DNA of 64,000 bases. Source: Gammaproteobacteria bacterium. GTDB lineage: Bacteria > Pseudomonadota > Gammaproteobacteria > CBDBNL01 > JAAOII01. The translations under genes and the position numbers were made by a program. Below, one piece after another: positions 966 to 61,105 of this stretch; positions within the stretch are counted from its first letter, which is position 1, and every line of letters starts with the position of its first letter. Below the pieces are notes generated by a model. It had not been told where the DNA came from and did no database searches. It saw nothing but the letters and a program-made list of their open reading frames with translations. The stretch spans positions 1,033,309 to 1,097,308 of the forward strand of contig OZ242292.1 in the NCBI GenBank assembly GCA_965207705.1. The letters run 5' to 3'.

Positions 966-1934
966 TTATTTAACTTCTCGTCTCCCGTTTGGATATACCC
1001 ACTCCTTCCTGCCATCTGAATGTTCGGTTACCTTAGTTCCATCTGGGTATATAGCTTCTTTTCTCCCATCCGGATAGATCTTTCCTTTATAATTAGTGCC
1101 ATCTGGTAATATACCTTCTATCCTGCCATCTGGATATTCGGTTATCTTGTTTCCATCTGGGAGCTCAGTTACCTTAATTCCATTTAGAAATATGGTCTCC
1201 TTTCTTCCGCCTGGAAATACGGACTCCTTTTTTCCGTCTGGATATTCAGTTATCTTGCCTCCTTCTGGAAATATAGCCACTGTTTTACCATTTAGGTAGG
1301 TTATTAATTTATTGCCATCTGGATATTCGATCATCTTGCTCCCTCCTGGAAATATAGACACTTTCCTGCCGTCTGGGTAGGTGGTGGACCTTCCTACACC
1401 TGGAAGTATATGCACTTTCCTGCCGTCTGGGTAGGTGGTTAGCTCACCCACCTCTGAGGATATAAACTCTTTCTTGCCATTCGGAAAGGTTGTTAGCTTA
1501 CTCCCGTCTGAGGATATAGACTCTTTCCTGCCATTCGGAAAGGTTGTCAGTCTACCCCCATCTGGAGATGTAGTCTCCTTTTTTCCGTCTCGATATATAA
1601 TTACCGTTTTCCCATCTGGGAATATGGTATGTTCCCTGCCATCTGGGTAGGTGGTTTGTGTTTGCCCATCTGGGAATATGGTATGTTCCTTACCATCTGG
1701 GTAGGTGGTTTGCGTTTGCCCATCTGGGAATATGATCTGTTTCTTGCCGTCTGAGTAGGTAGTTAGCTTTCCTCTATCAGGGTCTTTTGCTTCATCACTC
1801 TCGTAAGTGAACACGGGTATAGGTTCTCTTGGTGTAGTATCTACCCTGTCATACCCGTTTGTAGGGAAAGTTCTGCAAGCGCTAATAAAACTCCCTATTA
1901 AAATGCCCACCAAAATTTTTATTATGATCTTCAT
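966..1934 (-). CDS. Octapeptide-repeat (x[YF]PDG[KR]xx) lipoprotein
   Basis: ORF 966..1958. The likely start is the internal ATG at 1934 (MKIIIKILVGILIGSFISAC, lipobox ISAC). About 30 consecutive 8-residue units such as TTYPDGKEHTIFPDGQTQ follow. The plus-strand ORFs 1096..1299 and 1435..1650 are antisense shadows of this repeat. Confidence 0.65.
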   Translation of the reverse strand: MKIIIKILVGILIGSFISACRTFPTNGYDRVDTTPREPIPVFTYESDEAKDPDRGKLTTYSDGKKQIIFPDGQTQTTYPDGKEHTIFPDGQTQTTYPDGREHTIFPDGKTVIIYRDGKKETTSPDGGRLTTFPNGRKESISSDGSKLTTFPNGKKEFISSEVGELTTYPDGRKVHILPGVGRSTTYPDGRKVSIFPGGSKMIEYPDGNKLITYLNGKTVAIFPEGGKITEYPDGKKESVFPGGRKETIFLNGIKVTELPDGNKITEYPDGRIEGILPDGTNYKGKIYPDGRKEAIYPDGTKVTEHSDGRKEWVYPNGRREVK

Positions 1935-2024
1935 ATAAATATCTCTGTATTCAATCAATTTAGAATTTCTATTATTATAGCATAAGAGTAAGTTGCCTCC
2001 CTTATTCTCGTTGGGGTTCTGGTT

Positions 2025-25422: not shown

Positions 25423-25555
25423 ACCTGTTATTATATAACTTTTTTATACTTTTGTTAAGTTTCATTAAAACTCTGTGTTTTTTTAATATGGCTGCTACCA
25501 GAAAGATTAATTGATGAAAAAAGAGATTTATGACATAAGTAACCTGGAAGAAATA

Positions 25556-26176
25556 TTAATTATTGCATTTGCTCCGTTTTGCTTTCTTTTTCCGATCAGA
25601 TTCGACTTGTTTCATCGCTTGCGCAGGATCATGTGGGCGTGAACCACTCGGCGGCTCTCTACTATATTTTTCATAATATGCTTGGAACACAAAATATGGA
25701 TATACATAATCCTTTACATAATCATATAAATTATCTGCATCAATATCAGTATGAAATGCCAAGCAGCACCAGCATATACCATTAAGTTTATTTAAATGCA
25801 CATCTCGCAACTCTTTACCTAATCTTTTTCTTGTCTTTTCAATCCTTCCTGATTTTTCGAAAACCATAGGGAAGCCCCATTGATCGCGGGCATCTTCATT
25901 ATTGCCAAGACGTATCTTAATTTTATATCCGGGTGGTTTATCGTCAACTAAATGCCTTAATTTGTTAGCATCTTCTCCTGGTTTTAATGGCCCAATACGC
26001 CATGGGCTTTTTGTACTTTCTCTAAAATACTTAACACGAAAATATAAATTCCCTTGTATAGTTTCATGTTTTGGATCGTATTCTAAATCAGGGAAAAATT
26101 TTTTTATCCGTTCGAAATGTTCTTTTGAATAAGCTATGCATAATCCTTTATTCAAATGGGCCGCTCTTAAATTCAA
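25556..26176 (-). CDS. Uncharacterised 206-aa protein, third gene of the patatin-nucleotidyltransferase operon
   Basis: ORF separated from the nucleotidyltransferase gene by only 12 nt. Cys/His cluster (GICWCCLAFH), basic C-terminal tail (KKKAKRSKCNN). AT-rich. No recognisable family. Confidence 0.5.
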   Translation of the reverse strand: MNLRAAHLNKGLCIAYSKEHFERIKKFFPDLEYDPKHETIQGNLYFRVKYFRESTKSPWRIGPLKPGEDANKLRHLVDDKPPGYKIKIRLGNNEDARDQWGFPMVFEKSGRIEKTRKRLGKELRDVHLNKLNGICWCCLAFHTDIDADNLYDYVKDYVYPYFVFQAYYEKYSREPPSGSRPHDPAQAMKQVESDRKKKAKRSKCNN

Positions 26177-26188
26177 AAGCTAGTTCTG

Positions 26189-27211
26189 TTATAAAGATAG
26201 CGCATAGGGCTTGACTGCATCAACAATTGGAATTGAGGCGGTTGCTGCTGGCGTTATTTTGCCTCCTGAATTATTATTAGAGGTGTCTCCATTTAATTTT
26301 CCGAACTTATCGCCGAAAATCTTTCTCCATTCTTTTACACATTCATCATGGTTCTCTGCTTTATAAGCATCATTAATGAAATTATTATAGTCATTAAATA
26401 TTTTTCTGAATTTAGAATAGCCGTCTTGATTCCATCTGTCTGCAAAATTTTCACTCTCAAGTATTGGATTTTGAATTCTGGGAAGAGCTTCATTCTGCTG
26501 TAAGTAATCGTTTATTCTATTGACAAGAGTTTTTAAGCAGGTAGGGAGATTAGCAAAATCCGCATCATCATACTCATCATCATCTTGCACCTGCGCCCCT
26601 ATGAGTGTAGTTAATATTATTGATTTAATATCAAATTTTTTACTATGGTCTCTAGAATACTTTAATAATCTTGTGACTTTACGAATAAGGTTCCCTCCAA
26701 TTTTTTTATTTTTTTCTACCAACCATTTTTTATAGCCATCGCCATCAGTTAGCTCATAGCATTTATCATTTGAATTACAAATATAATATAAATAATCATT
26801 CTCCCCATTAGCAACTCTTATACAAGGAACCAGATCGAGATGAAAATCTCCCGCATAATCTAGTGTGACGCATCTATTATTCTTTTCGACTATATCCTTA
26901 TAGTTTGCATCTGCACGAAATACTTCATATATATCATTCACATAATCTACAAATGTATTTGCATCAAACTCATCACCCTTTATCATTATTAATACATCAG
27001 CGTCAAATCCAGTATCAGCGTCAACTGGTTTAATTATAGTTTTTAATGCATAGGATCCTTGAGTTTCAAAAGTTCTATAGGGTACGTATTTATCTTTCAA
27101 ATAACTAGTGATGATATCAATTTTTGATTCCAATAGCGCTACGCGTGATTTATTGAGATTGACTTCGTCTTTAAGAAAGTCATCAAAATAACCTATAATT
27201 TCGTTAATCAT
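26189..27211 (-). CDS. Pol-beta-fold nucleotidyltransferase with cGAS/DncV-like (CD-NTase/SMODS-type) active-site pattern
   Basis: 340 aa. GS (res 52-53), then 10 residues, then D-A-D (KPVDADTGFDADV), and a downstream hDh strand (FHLDLVP), i.e. GS-x(n)-[DE]h[DE]...h[DE]h. Helical C-terminal half. Directly downstream (65 nt) of a patatin phospholipase gene. Confidence 0.55.
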   Translation of the reverse strand: MINEIIGYFDDFLKDEVNLNKSRVALLESKIDIITSYLKDKYVPYRTFETQGSYALKTIIKPVDADTGFDADVLIMIKGDEFDANTFVDYVNDIYEVFRADANYKDIVEKNNRCVTLDYAGDFHLDLVPCIRVANGENDYLYYICNSNDKCYELTDGDGYKKWLVEKNKKIGGNLIRKVTRLLKYSRDHSKKFDIKSIILTTLIGAQVQDDDEYDDADFANLPTCLKTLVNRINDYLQQNEALPRIQNPILESENFADRWNQDGYSKFRKIFNDYNNFINDAYKAENHDECVKEWRKIFGDKFGKLNGDTSNNNSGGKITPAATASIPIVDAVKPYALSL

Positions 27212-27276
27212 GGCTAGTTAATAGGGCTAGTATCTTAAATTTCAAGTACTATTATTCGTTTTAATTGAGAATCTAA

Positions 27277-28251
27277 TTATTTTGAGAAAAATTTCTTAAA
27301 ATCTTCTTTTTTACCCTTAAATTTTTCTTCCGCCCTTCTCTTAAGGGCGGGGATTACCTTAATGTCATCAAGAGATATTTTTTCAACAGTATAATCGACT
27401 CTCATATATCTATCTTTAAGCATCAATTCCAGTGAATTATGAGGGAAGTCTTTTTGGATATGCATAACAAAATCAATGAGTTTTTTATTCTTCCATCCCG
27501 TTAAAAAACCCCATTTCTTTGAAAAATCTTTCTGCTTATAACCTTCTCTCGACTTGCCTGTACCTAATGAAAGTAATTTTATATCAGCGTGCTGAGATTC
27601 AAAGTTACTTAATGCTTCGATATAGCCCACCAAAGCAGGATTATTAGCCCACAGCCCTCCATCACATAACAAGGCACCCTTAACCATGGTGGGGTCAAAG
27701 TAAGTTGGCGCACAACAAGAAGCTAAAACTGCCTGCCATAGAGGGATGCATCCATCGCGTGCATACCCTTTTTTTCCTCTTATTTTTTCCTGATAATTAG
27801 ATTTAAATACCTGAACCCCCCAATTAGAAATATTTACAGCATTTATAATCAAGGGTTTATCTATATCTTTTAATAATGTGCCTCCCATCTCCTTCTCTAA
27901 AAATTTTCTAAGAGAACTAGTTTTATATATAGAGGCACATAGCCCCTCCCCCAAAAGTTGTTCTAAAAATCTACAAAGTATATTATGGTTAGTTTTTTTA
28001 AAAATACCAGGGGAACTATTTTCAAATTGATCTATTAATCTATCTAAGGGGTATCCTATCGCAACAGCCGCTGCTACAATAGCTCCCGTGCTTGTTCCAA
28101 CAATTAAATCAAAATATTCCCTAATATCAATGCTCAGTTCCTTCTCTATTTTGTGAAGAATCATAGCCGGGTATATTCCACGAACCCCGCCGCCATCAAT
28201 TGTTAGAATTTTAATTTCACCCCTATAGCCCTTTAGTTTTTCCTTCATCAT
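27277..28251 (-). CDS. Patatin-like phospholipase (CapV-like effector)
   Basis: 324 aa. Oxyanion-hole motif DGGGVRG (res 19-25), GxSxG nucleophile motif GTSTG, catalytic-dyad Asp in LLCDGGLWANNP. Confidence 0.85.
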   Translation of the reverse strand: MMKEKLKGYRGEIKILTIDGGGVRGIYPAMILHKIEKELSIDIREYFDLIVGTSTGAIVAAAVAIGYPLDRLIDQFENSSPGIFKKTNHNILCRFLEQLLGEGLCASIYKTSSLRKFLEKEMGGTLLKDIDKPLIINAVNISNWGVQVFKSNYQEKIRGKKGYARDGCIPLWQAVLASCCAPTYFDPTMVKGALLCDGGLWANNPALVGYIEALSNFESQHADIKLLSLGTGKSREGYKQKDFSKKWGFLTGWKNKKLIDFVMHIQKDFPHNSLELMLKDRYMRVDYTVEKISLDDIKVIPALKRRAEEKFKGKKEDFKKFFSK

Positions 28252-28354
28252 TCAGATTAAGGTTATTTGTAGCAGCTCAATCTTTAAGCCCCATCTCCAT
28301 AAAATTCTTGAGTCATAGCGGCTAATCTCAACTTTCATTTTCTGTGCTGCGTAA

Positions 28355-29056
28355 TTACAGTTGTTCTGAATATAGCTTACTTATACTCGCTTTATCAAAT
28401 ATTCCTGGCAAAAATACTATAAAGCCATTATCAAGACGTTTTAGTTTGCCTTTCCATTCTTCTTGCCAACGGGCAAATGGTACCGATGGTTGTTTTTTTA
28501 TAAGTGTAAAAGGATCACCTTTAGGAATGTCATAAGTTATATTAATAATAATTTTCTTTCTCTTGGTAATCGGGCGAGGTACTCGCTCTTCGCGACTTAA
28601 AGTTTCTTTCTTTATTTGAATAGGTATTATCTGCTTCCCGTTACTTACTTGCATGTCGATGCCTTGCCAATCGAGTTCTGCATTCATTTCTACTGTATCA
28701 AATATTTCTTCGGCAATGTAACCAGCATGAATTTGGGTAAGCAAGCTTGCCCAAGTACGATATATTCTGGCAGGAAGTCCTCTATGAAAAGTTTCATAGC
28801 TAAATTGAGATTTCCTTCTAAATTCTTCCAGTTCTGGCTTCAAATCTTTAGAATACTTTGCATAAAACTTCTCATAATTAAGATAGTTAGAATAATTATC
28901 CCAGTATGTTTGATAAATATGCTTAAGGGCTTGTATATTGCGAGGTAAATCAAGTTCTACTATTTTAATTCGGGAGTATTTCTCTCTATAAGCTGAGGTG
29001 TCTATTCCGGAGAGGAATTTCTCAAATTTCTCTACTGATCGCATTGTTGCAACCAA
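28355..29056 (-). CDS. Hypothetical 233-aa protein, candidate type II restriction endonuclease partner of the upstream methyltransferase
   Basis: Start overlaps the methyltransferase stop by 25 nt (translational coupling). AT-rich. Possible degenerate PD-(D/E)xK-like segment (QGIDMQVSNGKQIIPIQIKKE). No family recognisable by eye. Confidence 0.4.
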   Translation of the reverse strand: MVATMRSVEKFEKFLSGIDTSAYREKYSRIKIVELDLPRNIQALKHIYQTYWDNYSNYLNYEKFYAKYSKDLKPELEEFRRKSQFSYETFHRGLPARIYRTWASLLTQIHAGYIAEEIFDTVEMNAELDWQGIDMQVSNGKQIIPIQIKKETLSREERVPRPITKRKKIIINITYDIPKGDPFTLIKKQPSVPFARWQEEWKGKLKRLDNGFIVFLPGIFDKASISKLYSEQL

Positions 29057-30075
29057 CCATTTGCAAGGTTTATATAATCTTTATTTAGTTCTATCCCCAA
29101 ATAATTTACTCCCAATTGCTTTGCCGCCACACATTCAGAACCAGAACCAGCAAACGGCACTAATGCCGTCCCAACCTCTTCGCCTGCCACAGCAGATCTG
29201 ATGAGTTGCTGGGTTAAATATAATGGTTTTTGTGTGGGGTGTTTAATAACAGAATGCTCGCGATGATGTTTTAGCTCGGAAGGAGGGAATATCTGATTAT
29301 CGCAGGTTTGACATAGAAACCATCTCTCGCTCGCACCAGCGCCGCCTGCTAAAGCCGGATAATGCAATACGTCACGCGGCAAGGCGCCGCGTGGATGCAC
29401 ATTGTAAACTGTATCTTTGTTTTGATTGTTATAACGGCAGGGCACGCTCAAACGCTTCTTGCCGCCAAGTTTTTTATAACTCTCGGTATAAGGAATACGG
29501 ATCTCATCAATGTTGATAATTGGGCGTTTGCCTTTCCAAAAACAAATTATGGTTTCATGGCTTCTCTGCCAAAACTTGGATGAAGGAACTGCCTTGTTCG
29601 TGTAGTGCCAAGCCAGCCACCTTTGTTTATCCAAGGGAAAGCGCACTGCCAAGTGCGCAATTATTTCGCTCAAGCCATATACATAAACGGGCTTGCCCTG
29701 CTTAACTAAGCGTAAGCATTCGTGCAACCATTGCTCACACCACGAGATATATTCATCGATATGAAGATTGTCGTCATCAATTTTGTTGCCAAAATCCTTG
29801 CCAATGTTGTAGGGCGGATCTGCAATGATAACGTCAAATAAATCATTTTGTTTTATATTTTGCAATACCTTGAGTGCATCTCCACAGATTATGGAGTTTA
29901 ATGGAGGTAATTCAGGCGATTGGTTATCTTTTGGTTTAATTGGATTTAAAAATATTTCTTTTTGTTGCAGAGGATTATAATCCTTGGCGGTAACTCCCTC
30001 CCGCGCAGTCTCCCGTGCAGTATCCGAGCGGAGATTATTCTGTTGGAGTTTCAATGTTCGCGTTGCGTTTGCCAA
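29032..30075 (-). CDS. DNA methyltransferase, beta-class amino-methyltransferase (motif IV DPPY before motif I FAGSG); N6-adenine or N4-cytosine specific
   Basis: 347 aa. IIADPPYNIG (motif IV, res ~85) precedes the C-terminal AdoMet-binding VPFAGSGSECVAAKQLGVNYLGIELN (motif I). This is the circular permutation typical of beta-group N6A/N4C MTases. Confidence 0.85.
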   Translation of the reverse strand: MANATRTLKLQQNNLRSDTARETAREGVTAKDYNPLQQKEIFLNPIKPKDNQSPELPPLNSIICGDALKVLQNIKQNDLFDVIIADPPYNIGKDFGNKIDDDNLHIDEYISWCEQWLHECLRLVKQGKPVYVYGLSEIIAHLAVRFPLDKQRWLAWHYTNKAVPSSKFWQRSHETIICFWKGKRPIINIDEIRIPYTESYKKLGGKKRLSVPCRYNNQNKDTVYNVHPRGALPRDVLHYPALAGGAGASERWFLCQTCDNQIFPPSELKHHREHSVIKHPTQKPLYLTQQLIRSAVAGEEVGTALVPFAGSGSECVAAKQLGVNYLGIELNKDYINLANGWLQQCDQ

Positions 30076-30132
30076 AAGTAATATGCCAAGTTAATTATTA
30101 ATGTTAATATTATACTCGATTTACAAGGGGGG

Positions 30133-31074
30133 CTATGTGGTAAATAGTGGCTCCCCCATTTTGATGGGGGTGTTAGGGTTGGGGACAAGGGATAGGTCGC
30201 GGTTTTCCAATAGCATGACTACGGTGGAGCCCATTTCAAAGTATCCAAGTTCATCTCCTTTGTTAAATTTTTGTGGGGTAGTGCGCTTCTCGGCGGCAGA
30301 ACGGGCGTGATAAACTGATCCCCAAGCCGTCCCGATAGACGAAACAAATAAGGCGGCAACCATCACATAAGCCATCATTCCATATTCTGTTGCAAATACA
30401 CAAGACAAACGCTGATTATGAGCGTATAAAGAGGGGAATCGTTTCACGCTTTTTTCGTTCACCGAGTAAAGCTCGCCTGGAATGAAGTTGGCAAGAGTAA
30501 GCGTAGCGGCGCAGGGGACATGGACGCGATGATAGTTATGCGGCGCCAAATAGATAACCGTGCTTTGCCCGTTGCTGAGAGATTTAACGCGAGAGTCATC
30601 TTCTTCTAAACCAAGGAGTTCGCTAACCGAATAGTCCGCTCCCTTGATGTTGCGGATAATTGGTGACTGGGGTGGCGACTTAGATGGGGAGGGGGGCGGA
30701 GATGATGCGGCATGCGAAATTGTAGGCGTCGTTGCACCTGGGCTAGCGGAATCAGATATGCCTGCAGAACTCAAAGCGACGGTTGTCTTAGCTGATATTC
30801 TGCCATGCTGAATTATGCCGCCATTGGTTAAGGTTCCGTCTGCTGGAGATACAAACGCCGAGGCAGATAAAGGGCGGGCATTCGCTTTGAGGCGGCGCGT
30901 GAAAAAATCGTTGAAGCTAATATAATTGCGTAGCTGCGAATGTAACGCCTCTTGCATATTTGGCTTGTATATAAGTATAAACAGATAGATTAACAGATTC
31001 TTTAACCAACGAATACGACAGTCAGTTAAGGCGCGGGCGGCGGCGGATAAATTCTTTTTCAAGTTCATTCGCAC
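30133..31074 (-). CDS. psd: Phosphatidylserine decarboxylase proenzyme
   Basis: 313 aa. Psd blocks (YISFNDFFTRRL, YHRVHVPC, C-terminal self-cleavage region FEMGSTVVMLL). Carries a ~43-aa Ser/Pro-rich insert (res ~100-142). Confidence 0.85.
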   Translation of the reverse strand: MRMNLKKNLSAAARALTDCRIRWLKNLLIYLFILIYKPNMQEALHSQLRNYISFNDFFTRRLKANARPLSASAFVSPADGTLTNGGIIQHGRISAKTTVALSSAGISDSASPGATTPTISHAASSPPPSPSKSPPQSPIIRNIKGADYSVSELLGLEEDDSRVKSLSNGQSTVIYLAPHNYHRVHVPCAATLTLANFIPGELYSVNEKSVKRFPSLYAHNQRLSCVFATEYGMMAYVMVAALFVSSIGTAWGSVYHARSAAEKRTTPQKFNKGDELGYFEMGSTVVMLLENRDLSLVPNPNTPIKMGEPLFTT

Positions 31075-47191: not shown

Positions 47192-48886
47192 TTATCTCTC
47201 AATAATATAGATATTATCCTGCTCTGTTGTCTGCAGATATTTAGGGTAGTGGGTTATTTTTTGCATTTGTTCTCCATACTTCTCATACAACCTCCCCCAT
47301 TCATCATCAGGGATGCCTGAACGATGAAATATCACTATATCATAATCACTCAAGATAAATTCATCAACTAGTAAACAACGAAAGTGCTTAGGGATGTAGT
47401 TTTGGTGAGCTAAATTGCAACTATCAATAAAATAAAGATTAAAAGGAGTTTCTTCAGTAGCTATTTTATGCGTAAGGGCAAAGGGTAGCACAGCACTTAT
47501 GCTGTCTCTTAGCTCATAGACAAATATATTCGTAACTTGATTTTCCTTTAGTTTGATATTAGTTTTATGGGCGTAGAATTGATATTCACGAGTTTTATAC
47601 TCCTGGAAATCGGATATGGTGGTCGGAATGCTAAAGAATAAATAAAATAATATGAACACGGGAACAAATAATCTTAATGCCGTTGTTGAGCTTTTACCCT
47701 TCAGATAAAAACATGCCGCGAGTATAAGGGCAAACTCAGGAATGCAATAATAATATCGTTGCGTAAACTTAAAAAATAATATCGCCATTATGTAAAGAAT
47801 CCCTCCAGCAAAAAGCATAATGGAAAACCTATGTCGTTGCAGCTTATTAATATCTTTGATATAACAAGCCACCATGATTAAAATAAGGGGAAAGAGCGGG
47901 TATGTGATAAATAACCCATATATAAAAGATAAATACTTGAAGTTATAACTTACTCCATAAACATATTTGCTTACAATTATAAAAAAGTGGAATGTCGCAT
48001 ACATCACTACAAAAAATAATGGCGCCAGTAGGATTCCTATTTCCAAAGGATTATTCTTAACAAAGGTAAGTGGTTTACGCAGGGCATTAACAATTGTAGT
48101 ATTGCTGTCAATCATGCGGAAAATTAACGCAGTGAGAGCAAATCCGCCAAAAAACACAAACATCGGCTCTTTAAAGTAAATCGCCGTATGCGCCAACGTC
48201 AAAGCAAAAATAAGATATCGGGTTTTATTGGTCTTATAAAATTGAATAACCGTATAAAGAAAAAGAACTGTGAGGAATATGGTGTTTCTTTCAGGAATTA
48301 CTAGAGTTGAAACAGGGATTAAGAAAGAGGCGTTTAATCCTATGAATAAAATTACTAATACTCGTTGCCATAACCGCACAAACGGAATAATTTTATTTAA
48401 GAAATATGCTGTGGCTAAAAACTCTATGAAAGTAACCGCATAAAGAAAATAATAAGAACAGTTTAGCCAATGGAATGGCAATGCCAGAAAACTTAAATCT
48501 TGATGCATAAAAGGGCCGAACCTATATCCCCAAGTAATCAATGGAGCCAAAAGATGCTTATTACATAGATATACATCTATATATAAAGGTTCTTCTCCAC
48601 GTTTAGGGCTGGCAAGATAAAAGTTATTCCAAAATAGAAAAATAGCATAAAGCCCCAGCAAGAACAAGGCAAGATAATCAGCTGGCGAACGCCCTTTCCA
48701 TGCCTGGTTGCTGTTAGGATGATTTACAAATAAAGCCTTTTCTTTTTCATAAGACCATTGCTGACTATAGCGTGTCACCCACAAACAATAAATGGTAAGT
48801 AAAGTGAAAGCAAGCACTAAAGCAATCGCTAAAATTAAGAACTCGGGATGTTGAGGCAATTTAGCAAAATTATCATAAAGAGACAT
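47192..48886 (-). CDS. Polytopic membrane protein, paralogue A of a three-member family (~12 TM plus ~150-aa C-terminal soluble domain); possibly a GT-C-like glycosyltransferase
   Basis: 564 aa. About 70% identical by eye to 50683..52383 and 52383..54089. Shared blocks: MSLYDNFAKL, HPNSNQAWKGR, NNFYLA, FYKTNKTRYL, EFILSDYD, YGEQMQKIT, NIYIIE. Confidence 0.7.
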   Translation of the reverse strand: MSLYDNFAKLPQHPEFLILAIALVLAFTLLTIYCLWVTRYSQQWSYEKEKALFVNHPNSNQAWKGRSPADYLALFLLGLYAIFLFWNNFYLASPKRGEEPLYIDVYLCNKHLLAPLITWGYRFGPFMHQDLSFLALPFHWLNCSYYFLYAVTFIEFLATAYFLNKIIPFVRLWQRVLVILFIGLNASFLIPVSTLVIPERNTIFLTVLFLYTVIQFYKTNKTRYLIFALTLAHTAIYFKEPMFVFFGGFALTALIFRMIDSNTTIVNALRKPLTFVKNNPLEIGILLAPLFFVVMYATFHFFIIVSKYVYGVSYNFKYLSFIYGLFITYPLFPLILIMVACYIKDINKLQRHRFSIMLFAGGILYIMAILFFKFTQRYYYCIPEFALILAACFYLKGKSSTTALRLFVPVFILFYLFFSIPTTISDFQEYKTREYQFYAHKTNIKLKENQVTNIFVYELRDSISAVLPFALTHKIATEETPFNLYFIDSCNLAHQNYIPKHFRCLLVDEFILSDYDIVIFHRSGIPDDEWGRLYEKYGEQMQKITHYPKYLQTTEQDNIYIIER

Positions 48887-50682: not shown

Positions 50683-52383
50683 TTATTTCTCAATAATATA
50701 GATGTTATCCCGCTCTGATGTCTGTAGATATTTAGGGAAGTGAGTTATTTTTTGCATTTGCGCTCCGTATTGTTCATACAAATTTACCCATTCCTCCTCA
50801 GAGATGCCTGGGCGCCAAAAAATCACTATATCATAATCACTCAAGATAAATTCATCGGCAGGAAGGCAACGAAATTGCTTAGATGCTTCCCCTCGCTGCT
50901 CTAAATCACAACCATCAAAAAGATGAAGATCAAAAGGCGTTTCTTTAGTAGCGATTCTTTGCAGCAGAACAAAAGGGAATGGAATGCTGTTAAGGCTAAG
51001 CCCTGAATCGTAAGCAAATACTTTAGTAATCTGATTTTCTTTGAGTTTGATGTTTGTTTTATAAGCGTAGGATTGATATTCACGGATTTTATGTAGCTGG
51101 AAATCTAATATGGTCGCCGGAATGCTAAAGAATAAATAAAATAATATGAACACAGGAACAAATATCCTTAATGCTGCCGTCGAACTTTTATCCTTCAGAT
51201 AAAAACATACCGCCAGTATAAGGGCAAACTCAGGAATGCAATAATAATATCTTTGTCCAAACCCAAAAAACAATAACACCATTATGTAGAGAACCCCTCC
51301 AGAAAAAAGCATAATAGAAAAGCAATGTCGTTGCAGCTTATTAATATCTTTGACATAACAAGCCGCCATTATTAAAATAAGCGAAAAGAGTGGATATGTG
51401 ATAAAGAGTTTATATAAAATAAATAGAACATTTTCCCTACGAACCGGAGCAACATAAATATACGTACTTTCAACTACAAAAAGCTGAAATGTCGTATACA
51501 TAACCACAAAAAATAATGGCGCCAGTAGGATTCCTATTTCTAAAGGATTATTCTTAGCAAAGTTAAATGGTTTGCGCAGGGCATCAACAATTGAGGTGTT
51601 GCTATCAACCATACGGAAAATTAACGCGGTGAGAGCAAATCCGCCAAAAAATAAAAACATAGGCTCTTTAAAGTAAATCGCCGTATGCGCCAACGTCAAA
51701 GCAAAAACAAGATATCGGGTTTTATTGGTCTTATAAAATTGAATAACCGCATAAAGAAAAAGAACAGTGAAGAATATGGCATTTCTTTCAGCAATAACTA
51801 AAGTTGAAACAGGAATTAAGAAAGAAGCATTTAATGCTATGAATAAAATTACTAGCACTCGTTGCCATAACCGCGCTAACGGAATGATTTTATTTAGGAA
51901 ATATACTGTAGCTAAAAACTCTAAGAAAGTAACCGCATAAAGCAAATAATGAGAACAATTTAGCCAATAAAATGGCAAAGCTAGGAGGTTTAAATCTTGA
52001 TGGCCAAAAACCAAAAATCTATGCCCCCAAGTAATCAGTGGAGCCAAAAGATGCATATTACATACATATACATCTATATATAAAATTTCATCATATCTTT
52101 TAAGTTCAGCAAGATAAAAATTATTCCAAAATAGGAAAATAACATAAAGACCCAACAATAACAAGGCAAGGTAATCGGCGGACGAGCGCCCTTTCCATGC
52201 CTGGTTGCTATTAGGATGCTTTACAAATAAAGCGTTTTCTTTTTCATAAGACCATTGATTACTATAGCGCGTCACCCACAAACAATAAATGGCAAGTAAA
52301 GTGAAAGCAAGCGCTAAAGATAAAGCTAAAATTAAGAACTCAGGATTCTGAGATACTTTAGCAAAATTATCATAAATAGACAT
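50683..52383 (-). CDS. Polytopic membrane protein, paralogue B
   Basis: 566 aa. Same conserved blocks as 47192..48886. Its start overlaps the stop of paralogue C at 52383. Confidence 0.7.
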   Translation of the reverse strand: MSIYDNFAKVSQNPEFLILALSLALAFTLLAIYCLWVTRYSNQWSYEKENALFVKHPNSNQAWKGRSSADYLALLLLGLYVIFLFWNNFYLAELKRYDEILYIDVYVCNMHLLAPLITWGHRFLVFGHQDLNLLALPFYWLNCSHYLLYAVTFLEFLATVYFLNKIIPLARLWQRVLVILFIALNASFLIPVSTLVIAERNAIFFTVLFLYAVIQFYKTNKTRYLVFALTLAHTAIYFKEPMFLFFGGFALTALIFRMVDSNTSIVDALRKPFNFAKNNPLEIGILLAPLFFVVMYTTFQLFVVESTYIYVAPVRRENVLFILYKLFITYPLFSLILIMAACYVKDINKLQRHCFSIMLFSGGVLYIMVLLFFGFGQRYYYCIPEFALILAVCFYLKDKSSTAALRIFVPVFILFYLFFSIPATILDFQLHKIREYQSYAYKTNIKLKENQITKVFAYDSGLSLNSIPFPFVLLQRIATKETPFDLHLFDGCDLEQRGEASKQFRCLPADEFILSDYDIVIFWRPGISEEEWVNLYEQYGAQMQKITHFPKYLQTSERDNIYIIEK

Positions 52384-54089
52384 TATCTTGTTCTCTCAAT
52401 AATATAGATATTGTCCTGCTCTGATGCCTGCAGATATTTGGGAAAATCAGTTATTTTTTGCATTTGTTCTCCATATTGTTCATATAATTTTTTCCATTCA
52501 TCATCAGGGATGGCTGAGCGCCAAAAAATTACTAGGTCGTAATCACTTAAGATAAATTCATCCACCTGCAGACAACGGAACTGCTCCGGCACTCTTCCCG
52601 CTGACTTTAAAGCACAATCAGCAAAAAGATGAAGAACAAAAGGCGTTTCTTTTGTAGCTATTCTTTGAAGAAGGACGAATTGCATTGGCAGGGGACCAAG
52701 TTCACCTCCTTGCCCATAAGAGAATACCTTATTAACCTGATTTTCTTTTAGCTTTATGTTTGTTTTATGACTGTAGAATTTATATTCATTAATTTTATAC
52801 CGCTGAAAATCGGATATGGTTGTTGGGATACTAAAGAACAAATAAAATAATATGAACGCAGGAACAAATATTCTTAATGCCGTTGTTGAGCTTTTACCCT
52901 TCAGATAAAAACATGCCGCCAATATAAGGACAAGCTCAGGAAGACAATAATAATATCTGCTGCCAAACCTAAAATATATTAGCGCCATTATGTAGAGAAC
53001 GCCTCCGGCAAAAAGCATAATGGAAAATCTATGCCGCTGCAGCTTATTAATATCTTTAACATAACAAGCCACCATGATTAAAATAAGCGGAAAGAGCGGG
53101 TATGTGATAAATAATCCATATACAACAGATATACGGCTTGCTTCACTGAATATTAGACCATAAACCCAACTGCTTTCAACTATAAAAAGTTGGAATGTTG
53201 CATACATAACCACAAAAAATAATGGCGCCAATAGGACTCCTATCTCCAAAGGATTTTTCTTAACAAAATCAAAGGGTCGGCGCAGGGCATCAACAATTGT
53301 AGTATTGCTGTCAATCATACGGAAAATTAACGCAGTAAGAGCAAATCCGCCAAAAAATAAGAATGTTGGCTCTTTAAAGTAAATAGCTATATGCGCCAAC
53401 GCTAAAGCAAAGATAAGATATTGATTCTTATTGGTTTTATAAAATTCAATAATCGCATAAAGAAAGAGAACCGTGAAGAATGTGGTGTTTCTGTCAGGGA
53501 TAACAAAGTTCGAAAAAGGAATTAAGAACGAAGCATTTAATACTATGAATAAAATCACTAACGCTCGTTGCCATAACCACACCAACGGAATAATTTTATT
53601 CAGAAAATATACCGTGACTAAAAACTCCAAAAAAGTAGCCAAATAATAAAAATAATAGGGGTTTTTTAGCCAATAGGATAGCAAACCTAAGATATTTAAA
53701 TCTTGATGCATAAAAGGCGCAAATCTCCGCCCCCAACTAATCCATGGTGGCACCAAATGTAAGTTGCGCGAATATACATCTATAAATAGAGGATCTTCAT
53801 TTCTTTTGGGTCCCGCTAAATAAAAGTTATTCCAAAACATAAAAATAACATAGAGTCCCAACAATAATAAGGCAAGATAATCAGCTGGGTTACGTCCTTT
53901 CCATGCCTGGTTACTGTTAGGGTGATTTATGAATAAAGCATTTTCTTTTTCATAAGACCATTGCTGACTATAGCGCGTCACCCAAAAACAATAAACGGCA
54001 AATAAAGTGAAAGCAAGAGTTAAAGCAAAAGCTAAAAGTAAGTACTGAGGATGCTCAGACAATTTAGCAAAATTATCATAAAGAGACAT
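52383..54089 (-). CDS. Polytopic membrane protein, paralogue C
   Basis: 568 aa. Same family, tandem with paralogue B. Confidence 0.7.
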   Translation of the reverse strand: MSLYDNFAKLSEHPQYLLLAFALTLAFTLFAVYCFWVTRYSQQWSYEKENALFINHPNSNQAWKGRNPADYLALLLLGLYVIFMFWNNFYLAGPKRNEDPLFIDVYSRNLHLVPPWISWGRRFAPFMHQDLNILGLLSYWLKNPYYFYYLATFLEFLVTVYFLNKIIPLVWLWQRALVILFIVLNASFLIPFSNFVIPDRNTTFFTVLFLYAIIEFYKTNKNQYLIFALALAHIAIYFKEPTFLFFGGFALTALIFRMIDSNTTIVDALRRPFDFVKKNPLEIGVLLAPLFFVVMYATFQLFIVESSWVYGLIFSEASRISVVYGLFITYPLFPLILIMVACYVKDINKLQRHRFSIMLFAGGVLYIMALIYFRFGSRYYYCLPELVLILAACFYLKGKSSTTALRIFVPAFILFYLFFSIPTTISDFQRYKINEYKFYSHKTNIKLKENQVNKVFSYGQGGELGPLPMQFVLLQRIATKETPFVLHLFADCALKSAGRVPEQFRCLQVDEFILSDYDLVIFWRSAIPDDEWKKLYEQYGEQMQKITDFPKYLQASEQDNIYIIERTR

Positions 54090-59311: not shown

Positions 59312-60817
59312 TTATTGGGATATCTCCAACCCTCCCCTCAACTTATTTTTTATGCTGTTATATCTCTCGCGTACTTCATTATCCTGTTTGATTTTCTTAT
59401 AAAAATTAGTGCAGGAGTATAAAACTGTTGAATGATTCTTGCCGCCAAAGCTGAGCCCTATTTCCGTAGTGCTTTTTGAAGTTAGTTCACGGCACAAACA
59501 CATAGCCATCTGGCGAGCGGCAGTTATAGAGCGGCTTCTGCCTTGAGAAGTTAAATCAGAGATTTGTATGCCAAAGCTATCCGCAACCGCTTTTTGAATT
59601 TGTTTCACAGATGCCTTGTGATCTTGCTGAGGAAGAATATCTTTTAATGTCTGCCTTATTAATGTCAGGTTTGGGGGCATATTGTGCGTTTTAGCGTAAA
59701 AAACAACCATCTTAACCGCCCCCTCCAGATCACGCACGCTGCGGTTTATCCGTTCCGCTATATAAGTGGCGCAATTATCATCAAAAACCACCTTAAAGGC
59801 GGCCCCTTTGTTTTTAATTATCGCTATTCTAGTTGCGAGGTCTGGCTTATCAATCGCTGCCATTACACCCATAGCAAGACGGGTTTTTAGTCGGTTGTGA
59901 ATTCCATTTATTTTATGGGGAGGTTGGTCGCAAGAAATAACCATATTTTTGCCAGCATCAAGGAAATGATTAAAAATATGGAAAAACTCGGTTTGGGTTT
60001 TTTCTTTACCTGCAAAAAAATGAATGTCGTCTATAAGCAATAAATCGGCGCTCTTGTATGCAGCTTTAAAATCATCCATTTTTTTAGCGATGATACTTTT
60101 TGTCATCATGGTTAAAAAATGGTCTGCTGTGACATACATGGCTTTAATGTTACTTGTCTTCGTTACATTATTCATTAACCCTTGCAACAAATGTGTTTTC
60201 CCGATTCCACTATCTCCATAAATAATAAAGTGCTCCCCTTTAATGTTTGCTTGAATGTTTGCTTGAGTATTTGTTTGAGTATTTGTTTGAGTGTTTGTTT
60301 GAGTGTTTGTTTGGATTCCCGCTTTCTCACCAAGGGTTTTTCCTTTTGTGTCTGATATATTTTTTAACAAACTAATAATTAATTCCTTTGCCATTTTATT
60401 GGACTCCCCTACAACGAAAGATTCAAGGGAGGTGGCGGGATTAACAAAAGAACAATGCGGTGATGCCTTCGCTCCTTTGATTCGGGAAGGTGTGTTCCCC
60501 CTATGTTGCGATATTTTCTTTTTTGGTTGCTCTTTTAAATAGCTGTACTTAACATTAAGGTTATTTATTTTTGGGGATCCTTGTAATTTAACCAACGCCC
60601 CCTTTATGCTTACCCCATATTTATCCTTAACCCATTTCATCTTATAATAGTTTTCAGCCACCACAAGAAAACTCGCATCTCCCTTCGCCCCCGACTTCAC
60701 TGCCACCTCATTCCTCTCAAGGATTAATGGCAACAACCACTTATTGAAATCCTCAGCAGGAATATCCTTCTGCAGAATATCACAGACATCGTGCCAAATT
60801 ACGTCTTTTTTACGCAC
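59312..60817 (-). CDS. dnaA: Chromosomal replication initiator DnaA
   Basis: 501 aa. AAA+ Walker A GDSGIGKTHL, sensor motifs, C-terminal DNA-binding domain (SRSITAARQMAMCLCRELT). Domain II has a (TNTQ)n low-complexity insert from a 12-bp microsatellite. Confidence 0.95.
   Translation of the reverse strand: MRKKDVIWHDVCDILQKDIPAEDFNKWLLPLILERNEVAVKSGAKGDASFLVVAENYYKMKWVKDKYGVSIKGALVKLQGSPKINNLNVKYSYLKEQPKKKISQHRGNTPSRIKGAKASPHCSFVNPATSLESFVVGESNKMAKELIISLLKNISDTKGKTLGEKAGIQTNTQTNTQTNTQTNTQANIQANIKGEHFIIYGDSGIGKTHLLQGLMNNVTKTSNIKAMYVTADHFLTMMTKSIIAKKMDDFKAAYKSADLLLIDDIHFFAGKEKTQTEFFHIFNHFLDAGKNMVISCDQPPHKINGIHNRLKTRLAMGVMAAIDKPDLATRIAIIKNKGAAFKVVFDDNCATYIAERINRSVRDLEGAVKMVVFYAKTHNMPPNLTLIRQTLKDILPQQDHKASVKQIQKAVADSFGIQISDLTSQGRSRSITAARQMAMCLCRELTSKSTTEIGLSFGGKNHSTVLYSCTNFYKKIKQDNEVRERYNSIKNKLRGGLEISQ
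60244..60315 (-). repeat. 12-bp microsatellite (6 units, tgtttgYttgaR/tRtttgtttgag) inside the dnaA linker (domain II)
   Basis: Six head-to-tail 12-bp units. On the coding (minus) strand they encode TNTQTNTQTNTQTNTQANIQANI. Confidence 0.8.
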
Positions 60818-61105
60818 AGGAAATAAATAAGGTTATTATGTTATATAAATAAATGTTCAAAGCAAAAGTTAAATTAGTGTTAATGTTTTATACCAAACAG
60901 AAAAGGAATAATGAAAATAAATCATAGAAAAGATTTGATTAATAATAAAAAAGTCGTCCGACAAATTTTATGAACAAGAAGTTAACAGGTTTCCAAAAAT
61001 AAAACCAAGCATTCACAAGAGCAAAAAAAGAAACAAACAAAACAAACAACCTAATAATAATAAAGGGGATAACCCATTTCATTAATTAACACCCTTTAGC
61101 GTTAG

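Follow-up and report, generated by a model that had tools for sequence, protein, structure and literature searches.

CapV-type cyclic-oligonucleotide-based antiphage signalling systems (CBASS) act by abortive infection through a phospholipase that is activated by a cyclic nucleotide. In the capV-dncV-cap2-cap3 operon of Vibrio cholerae, the effector gene precedes that of the cyclase, which is a nucleotidyltransferase of the cGAS/DncV-like type (CD-NTase); the product of the cyclase switches on the effector, a patatin phospholipase, and the cyclase is subject to ubiquitin-like regulation. In the type II-short class, also called E2-CBASS, an effector and a CD-NTase are accompanied by a stand-alone E2, with neither an E1 (adenylation) domain nor a JAB gene. 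Here we describe a locus in a 64,000-nucleotide (nt) stretch of a gammaproteobacterial genome (GenBank assembly GCA_965207705.1, contig OZ242292.1, positions 1,033,309 to 1,097,308; hereafter the window), in which three consecutive genes are predicted to encode a patatin effector, a CD-NTase and an E2. We conclude, with a probability of about 0.85, that these genes constitute a three-gene type II-short CBASS.

The E2-CBASS class has been reported in 616 genomes, and ~74% of these systems carry a clade G CD-NTase. The exemplar closest to our locus is SmCdnG–SmE2 of Serratia marcescens (PDB 8HSB, 8YJY, 9KKB; 10.1101/2022.05.25.493364; PMC12948482). In SmE2, C101 is the catalytic cysteine, H87 is essential for both cleavage and linkage, and H152 controls the interconversion of isopeptide and thioester; H87 and H152 are reported to be conserved in the E2s of E2-CBASS only. 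SmCdnG is attached via G406 of its Y405-G406-E407 sequence, a G406A substitution is tolerated, and SmE2 trims whatever follows. E2-CBASS cyclases are described as longer than other type II cyclases, with a conserved C-terminal helix and three-stranded sheet that recruit the E2 (PMC12948482). The sole available biochemistry of an E2-only system reports activation through poly-cGASylation.

Results

Predicted effector and cyclase

The original prediction, made from the DNA letters of the window alone, proposed a CBASS core in which a CapV-like patatin effector precedes a CD-NTase. The listing of open reading frames (ORFs) confirmed the two genes with the proposed lengths of 324 and 340 amino acids (aa), both on the minus strand and separated by 65 nt (Table 1), which gives the cyclase the adjacent, co-oriented effector gene characteristic of CBASS. 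Searches of Pfam, PADLOC and NCBIfam supported the proposed identities, at levels well beyond those of motifs that arise by chance.

The three patatin hallmarks that had been claimed were all located in the 324-aa protein. DGGGVRG spans residues 19–25 and includes the oxyanion motif GGGxRG (residues 20–25); GTSTG (residues 52–56) contains the nucleophile Ser54; and CDGG (residues 196–199, with Asp197) lies inside LLCDGGLWANNP. The protein matched Pfam Patatin (2.6e-29) and the PADLOC CBASS Effector model PDLC00758 (2.3e-85), and it scored 229.1 bits, above the cutoff of 200, against NCBIfam NF041079 (CBASS_lipase), the equivalog "CBASS cGAMP-activated phospholipase". Its top PDB matches were all CBASS lipases, namely cGAMP- and cUMP-AMP-activated phospholipases (3e-26 to 2e-22), and iPLA2-beta and plant patatin ranked far below. 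The protein therefore groups with CBASS phospholipases (CapV-type, 1e-26 to 2e-22) and not with housekeeping lipases (plant patatin, 1e-7), and is identified from its sequence as a CapV-type CBASS phospholipase.

The 340-aa protein matched Pfam SMODS (1.1e-25) and DncV-like_NTFase, and the PADLOC Cyclase models (best 1.2e-108). Its predicted structure has the two-lobed cGAS/DncV fold, and its sequence contains the GS...[DE]x[DE]...[DE] set of Pol-beta-type nucleotidyltransferases. The GS and FHLDLVP motifs named in the original prediction were found at G52-S53 and at residues 123–129, and both hold residues (G52, S53 and D126) that are invariant in an alignment of 53 homologues. The acidic pair was misassigned. 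The prediction had chosen the V63-D64-A65-D66 motif that lies ten residues beyond GS, a position that is variable among the homologues (RDND, QNDD or AEND), whereas D70 and D72 of F69-DAD-72, within FDADVLI and 16 residues after GS, are invariant. The predicted catalytic acids are thus D70, D72 and D126, to the exclusion of D64 and D66.

Among solved cyclases, the nearest by sequence was BcCdnD of B. cereus (1.7e-13), followed by VcCdnG, SmCdnG and BfCdnB, and the nearest by structure were EcCdnD02 of E. cloacae and then BfCdnB of B. fragilis. The NCBIfam cGAS equivalog scored the protein at 83 bits, below its cutoff of 150, which places the cyclase outside clade A.

A third gene encoding a predicted E2

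The original prediction ended the operon at the cyclase and held that no Cap2-like gene was present, so that the locus would be a minimal or atypical variant. The operon in fact runs on to position 25556, through an ORF that begins with TTG 12 nt past the cyclase stop and encodes 206 aa. Its product has no Pfam or NCBIfam family, a phmmer search of the PDB returned nothing meaningful, and a word-indexed homology search retrieved the protein itself alone. Five PADLOC E2 or E1–E2 models nevertheless matched it (best 1.8e-9), and an exhaustive HMMER search recovered 69 relatives at E ≤ 1e-3. These relatives include the C-terminal ~190 residues of 510–560-aa proteins that carry, in their N-terminal 330 residues, the nearest homologues of the window cyclase; judged by their sequences, the longer proteins are natural cyclase–E2 fusions.

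The structure predicted for the 206-aa protein is a confident ubiquitin-conjugating (UBC) fold, for which the best match in a fold search was SmE2. It contains H127-x-N129, C137-C138 and H182. In a family alignment of 31 sequences, H127, C138 and H182 are invariant and C137 is nearly so, and the family shares the signature DLH..CCLG..VYPYFVWQAY..PPxGE..H. H127 lies 11 residues before C138 and H182 lies 44 after it, a correspondence to H87, C101 and H152 of SmE2 by order and spacing only. The locus thus places a stand-alone UBC-fold protein with a putative catalytic cysteine beside the cyclase, and this cysteine is flanked by two histidines as in the E2s of E2-CBASS. On the combined sequence and model evidence, we assign the 206-aa protein as an E2-only, Cap2-like protein. 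A second in-frame TTG, at codon 8 (position 26155), offers an alternative start; residues 1–9 are modelled with low confidence and homologues start around residue 13, and the true start may be this second TTG.

No ThiF (E1) or JAB match was found among the five genes of the islet in which the operon lies, which encode a methyltransferase, a restriction endonuclease, the patatin, the cyclase and the E2. The proposed absence of a Cap3-like gene was thereby upheld. A full type II system, with a Cap2 E1–E2 protein and Cap3, does not describe the locus, which has an E2 of 206 aa without an E1 domain and no JAB gene; nor does a minimal type I system, since a syntenic E2 gene is present. The presence of an E2, together with the absence of E1 and JAB from the islet, is the basis for the type II-short assignment. 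The label "minimal" is to be discarded. Within type II-short CBASS, the locus is atypical in its short cyclase, in the disordered tail of the cyclase with its conserved KPYA motif, and in an E2 without the SEC-C motif described below. A promoter and terminator scan (22 hits, compared with 18.8 in shuffled sequence) showed no difference and is uninformative on operon structure.

Conservation and distribution of the cassette

When species-representative genomes were scanned, at least 208 stretches proved to encode a relative of the cyclase. Eighty of these loci were retrieved, and their ORFs were searched with hidden Markov models built from the window family. The order patatin, cyclase, E2 was found in 56 of the 80 loci, with separate genes in 49 and with the E2 fused to the cyclase in 7. 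A further 9 loci contained cyclase and E2 without a patatin directly upstream, 8 contained patatin and cyclase with no E2 detected, and 7 had neither partner. Overall, the gene next upstream of the cyclase encodes a patatin in 64/80 loci, and the E2 lies immediately downstream of it or is fused to it in 65/80, across many phyla.

Metagenome-assembled genomes (MAGs) of about ten phyla contain homologues of the cyclase, as a rule together with the complete cassette (loci L003–L082). The carriers are almost all MAGs, and include Poribacteria, Latescibacterota, Arenicellales, Dehalococcoidia/SAR202, Caldilineaceae, Bdellovibrionales and Nitrospirales, as well as "Ca. Spongiihabitans", "Porisulfidus", AqS3 and a Bathymodiolus gill symbiont. 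Judged by their taxon names, the carriers would largely be symbionts of sponges or other invertebrates, and the occurrence of such names across about ten phyla suggests a habitat-wide horizontal spread of the cassette. No match was found in phage records. Homologues in plasmid records were merely 32–40% identical, and were ~480-aa proteins in both neighbourhoods examined (H1, H3). In several loci (e.g., L013, L021, L023, L028 and L029), a second, more distant cyclase–E2 pair is located nearby.

The cyclase tail and the SEC-C motif

In the cyclase model, the last ordered element is a helix at residues 288–299, and residues 311–340 have predicted local distance difference test (pLDDT) scores of 33–41. 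Near the end of this tail is a motif, [KR]P[YW][AGS] followed by 1–9 residues, that is present in most of 96 unfused cyclase homologues and is kept at the domain junction in most of 24 CD-NTase–E2 fusions. Its small residue is mostly Ala among the homologues, and is A337 in the window cyclase, whose tail closes with K334-P-Y-A337-LSL. Because of this conservation, and by analogy with the attachment of SmCdnG through G406, the tolerance of G406A and the trimming of following residues by SmE2, Ala337 is a candidate site for E2 attachment, with LSL being removed.

The E2 family comparison revealed a C-terminal zinc motif, SEC-C (CxCGSGKKYKKCC), in 58/65 partner E2s, and the E2 family profile matches the zinc peptides of SecA and YchJ at about 1e-6. 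The window E2 lacks the motif and ends with ...KRSKCNN (25556–25570), at the position of its first Cys. No remnant of SEC-C was found downstream of the E2 stop in any frame. Loss by truncation at the islet junction was considered and rejected, as the junction lies ~66 nt past the stop with no remnant in between. Some relatives (e.g., P0070, P0087 and P0135) likewise end before or within the SEC-C position. No mention of a link between SEC-C and CBASS E2s was found in the searchable literature, and the association made here by family comparison appears to be undescribed there.

The defence islet and its genomic setting

The CBASS genes lie in an islet of 4.6 kb with a G+C content of 36.3% (34.2% for the CBASS genes themselves), compared with 43.5–45.1% in the flanks. 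Alignments place its junctions at the psd stop codon (~30137) and ~67 nt upstream of the clpS start (~25490), where it replaces ~70 nt of the spacer found at the empty site. In sister strains with identical ClpS, this site was found in three states: empty, with psd beside clpS, on contigs of 1.3–2.1 Mb (L083, L086); occupied by a single D12 methyltransferase gene (L085, L087); and occupied by the restriction–modification (R-M) and CBASS islet (L084 and the window). Sample ERZ25069764 holds all three states. The empty or differently filled site in sister strains shows that the islet is a recently exchanged defence cassette. No integrase or transposase gene is present within it, and a search for repeats at its ends found only short, low-identity repeats that are probably due to chance.

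Directly upstream of the CBASS genes, and in the same orientation, are the genes for a TaqI-like restriction endonuclease and its partner methyltransferase, which overlap by 25 nt. This R-M pair does not belong to the CBASS, and acts as a separate, first-line defence within the same islet.

The ClpA of the host is 46–47% identical to named proteins of Cellvibrionaceae, Microbulbifer and Pseudomonadales, and the host appears from its sequences to be a divergent gammaproteobacterium. The largest contig that bears the E2 is 2.06 Mb. No Rfam family reached its gathering score in the 64-kb window, hence no tRNA, rRNA or riboswitch was found there. Elsewhere in the window, a 330-aa protein (966–1958, minus strand) contains six Tcp10_C (CPAP/TCP10 G-box) repeats (Pfam 1.2e-61), a eukaryote-like repeat type as found in host-associated bacteria. 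Three ORFs of ~565 aa without a Pfam match (47192–48886, 50683–52383 and 52383–54089, all on the minus strand), located in a stretch of low GC content (34–39%), may be paralogues. An intergenic region of low GC content comes after dnaA (59312–60817, minus strand). The minimum of the cumulative GC skew lies near 61 kb, so that the stretch 59312–61105 of the window, which includes dnaA, probably contains the replication origin.

Table 1. Features of the CBASS locus and the surrounding islet (positions in the window)
Feature	Position	Strand	Evidence
E2-only (Cap2-like) regulator, 206 aa, TTG start	25556..26176	-	PADLOC E2 models, HMMER relatives, UBC fold, synteny
CD-NTase (cGAS/DncV-like cyclase), 340 aa	26189..27211	-	Pfam SMODS, PADLOC Cyclase, invariant G52-S53/D70/D72/D126
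C-terminal tail of the CD-NTase (residues 311-340), predicted to be disordered	26192..26281	-	pLDDT below 50; K334-P-Y-A337 then LSL
CapV-like patatin phospholipase effector, 324 aa	27277..28251	-	Pfam Patatin, PADLOC, NCBIfam CBASS_lipase, PDB matches, synteny
TaqI-family type II restriction endonuclease	28355..29056	-	Pfam RE_TaqI 1.7e-38, PADLOC REase_II 2.8e-33
N6/N4 DNA methyltransferase (beta-class, DPPY motif), partner of the endonuclease	29032..30075	-	Pfam N6_N4_Mtase 4.3e-36, PADLOC MTase_II 4.9e-42
Strain-variable low-GC defence islet (R-M + CBASS) between psd and clpS	25490..30137	.	GC, sister-strain comparison, homology breaks
psd-clpS intergenic site, strain-variable hot spot	25423..30132		Compared with loci L083, L085, L086, L087

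Discussion

Comparison with described systems

The comparisons document the protein identities, intact catalytic residues, conserved synteny and strain-variable accessory status of the locus. Its resemblance to SmCdnG–SmE2 extends from gene content (effector, CD-NTase and stand-alone E2, with neither E1 nor JAB) to the UBC fold of the E2, for which SmE2 is the top structural match, and to the trio of one cysteine and two histidines (H127, C138 and H182 here; H87, C101 and H152 in SmE2). Both cyclases have an aromatic–small-residue motif near the C-terminus, Y-A-LSL in the window and Y-G-E in SmCdnG, and natural cyclase–E2 fusions occur in the family. The order of effector and cyclase, the patatin effector and the prospect of ubiquitin-like cyclase regulation recall the Vibrio operon, from which the locus differs in lacking an E1 domain and Cap3/JAB and in having a cyclase outside clade A. 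The Serratia effector is not known to be a patatin.

Several features weigh against the assignment as an E2-CBASS. The cyclase has 340 aa, compared with about 407 for SmCdnG, to which it is ≤19% identical, and its identity to every solved cyclase is ≤21%, which weighs on its clade placement. Its last 30 residues are predicted to be disordered, in place of the helix and three-stranded sheet that dock SmE2. Because the model lacks this structured element, E2 recruitment may differ from the SmCdnG–SmE2 mode. The predicted attachment residue is Ala instead of the "highly conserved" Gly. The E2 is 12% identical to SmE2 (206 aa compared with 159 aa), its ORF has no ATG start, and its family normally bears a C-terminal SEC-C motif that is absent from the window copy.

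The closest relatives of the window cyclase and E2 are the CD-NTase–E2–SEC-C fusions of 510–560 aa (e.g., P0009, P0013, P0057 and P0113), which are annotated at most as 'SEC-C domain-containing protein'. They are 49–54% identical to the window proteins over the cyclase and 36–43% over the E2, and they share the KPYA motif at the junction and the family signature of the E2. In the window, unlike in the fusions, 12 nt separate the cyclase gene from the E2 gene, and the E2 does not end in a SEC-C motif.

Proposed mechanism and alternatives

In the absence of an E1 domain, the window E2 must act without ATP-dependent activation. Based on the Serratia work and on the conserved tail motif, we infer that the E2 processes the cyclase tail and conjugates it independently of an E1. 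Cys138, aided by His127, would attack the disordered tail after Ala337 of KPYA, freeing the last three residues of the cyclase and yielding a thioester. A lysine, belonging either to the E2 or to a further CD-NTase, would then take over the thioester as an isopeptide, with His182 as the putative counterpart of the histidine that controls how the two bonds interconvert. Such conjugation would set or prime cyclase activity. Upon phage infection, the CD-NTase would make a cyclic oligonucleotide that activates the patatin lipase, leading to degradation of membrane phospholipids and to cell death before phage release.

The alternative that survives best retains the E2 and gives it a different logic: it could mainly restrain the cyclase, as a covalent safety catch that is released on infection, or could link the cyclase to other targets in the cell or the phage in the manner of Cap2, instead of activating it through poly-cyclase chains. 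The activating trigger might be a phage protease that cuts a surface loop. Without the ubiquitin-like docking module, the SmCdnG interfaces cannot all apply to the window cyclase, and the natural cyclase–E2 fusions imply a tethered resting state. Activation loops for prohead proteases are reported in CD-NTases of clades A, D and G. The published biochemistry, with its activation by poly-cGASylation, argues against this alternative, which we regard as unlikely but deserving of serious consideration.

It is improbable that a small (~2 Mb) and probably host-associated genome gained the operon by horizontal transfer and now carries it as a decaying or inactive remnant, which has lost the SEC-C module of its E2 and no longer defends. 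The E2 does stop at the point where relatives run on into the zinc motif, with no remnant downstream; most partner E2s retain it; its gene starts with TTG; and sister strains live without the islet. The three ORFs are, however, full-length with all catalytic residues intact, and the E2 sequence is identical in independent assemblies. Moreover, some relatives of the E2 similarly stop ahead of the SEC-C position or inside it, and the characterised SmE2 is not reported to bear this motif.

A minimal two-gene type I CBASS, in which the 206-aa ORF is unrelated or spurious, could draw on the lack of a protein family, of a PDB sequence match and of an ATG, and on the word-indexed search that found only the query. 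We consider it very improbable in view of the PADLOC matches, the 69 relatives with cyclase fusions among them, the similarity of the modelled fold to the Serratia CBASS E2, and the position of the family downstream of, or fused to, the cyclase in 65/80 loci. Finally, the patatin might adjoin a nucleotidyltransferase by mere accident and be a lipase with a housekeeping role or a host target, in the manner of the secreted effectors ExoU and VipD. The small, host-associated appearance of the genome and the eukaryote-like Tcp10_C repeat protein could be cited for this reading, which is scarcely credible, given that the CBASS_lipase score exceeds the equivalog cutoff while the model for the type IV secretion system effector VpdC gives 17 bits only (NCBIfam), that the nearest solved structures are all CBASS lipases, and that the patatin is kept directly upstream of the cyclase across phyla.

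Implications

The type II-short CBASS described here is a clean E2-only example, the boundaries of which are defined, from a gammaproteobacterial genome that is small and divergent. We tentatively raise the possibility, which we hold to be somewhat less probable than its converse, that the family represents a distinct branch of E2-CBASS, with a short cyclase, a disordered KPYA tail that has Ala rather than Gly as conjugation residue, no ubiquitin-like docking module, and a larger, usually SEC-C-tagged E2 that is often fused to the cyclase. To judge by the taxon names of its carriers, such a branch would have spread chiefly among symbionts, from many phyla, of marine sponges and invertebrates. 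In that case the way in which the E2 is recruited and the function of the zinc motif would be mechanistically unlike the Serratia paradigm, and the window copy would be a natural SEC-C-less variant. The sub-family is populous, as the scan of species-representative genomes indicates, and it contradicts two generalisations based on Serratia: that E2-CBASS cyclases are long, with a structured ubiquitin-like C-terminal module, and that Gly is the attachment residue. E2-CBASS itself is already known, and the locus is not a new kind of system; the leads it offers may be useful for understanding the origin of ubiquitin-like conjugation.

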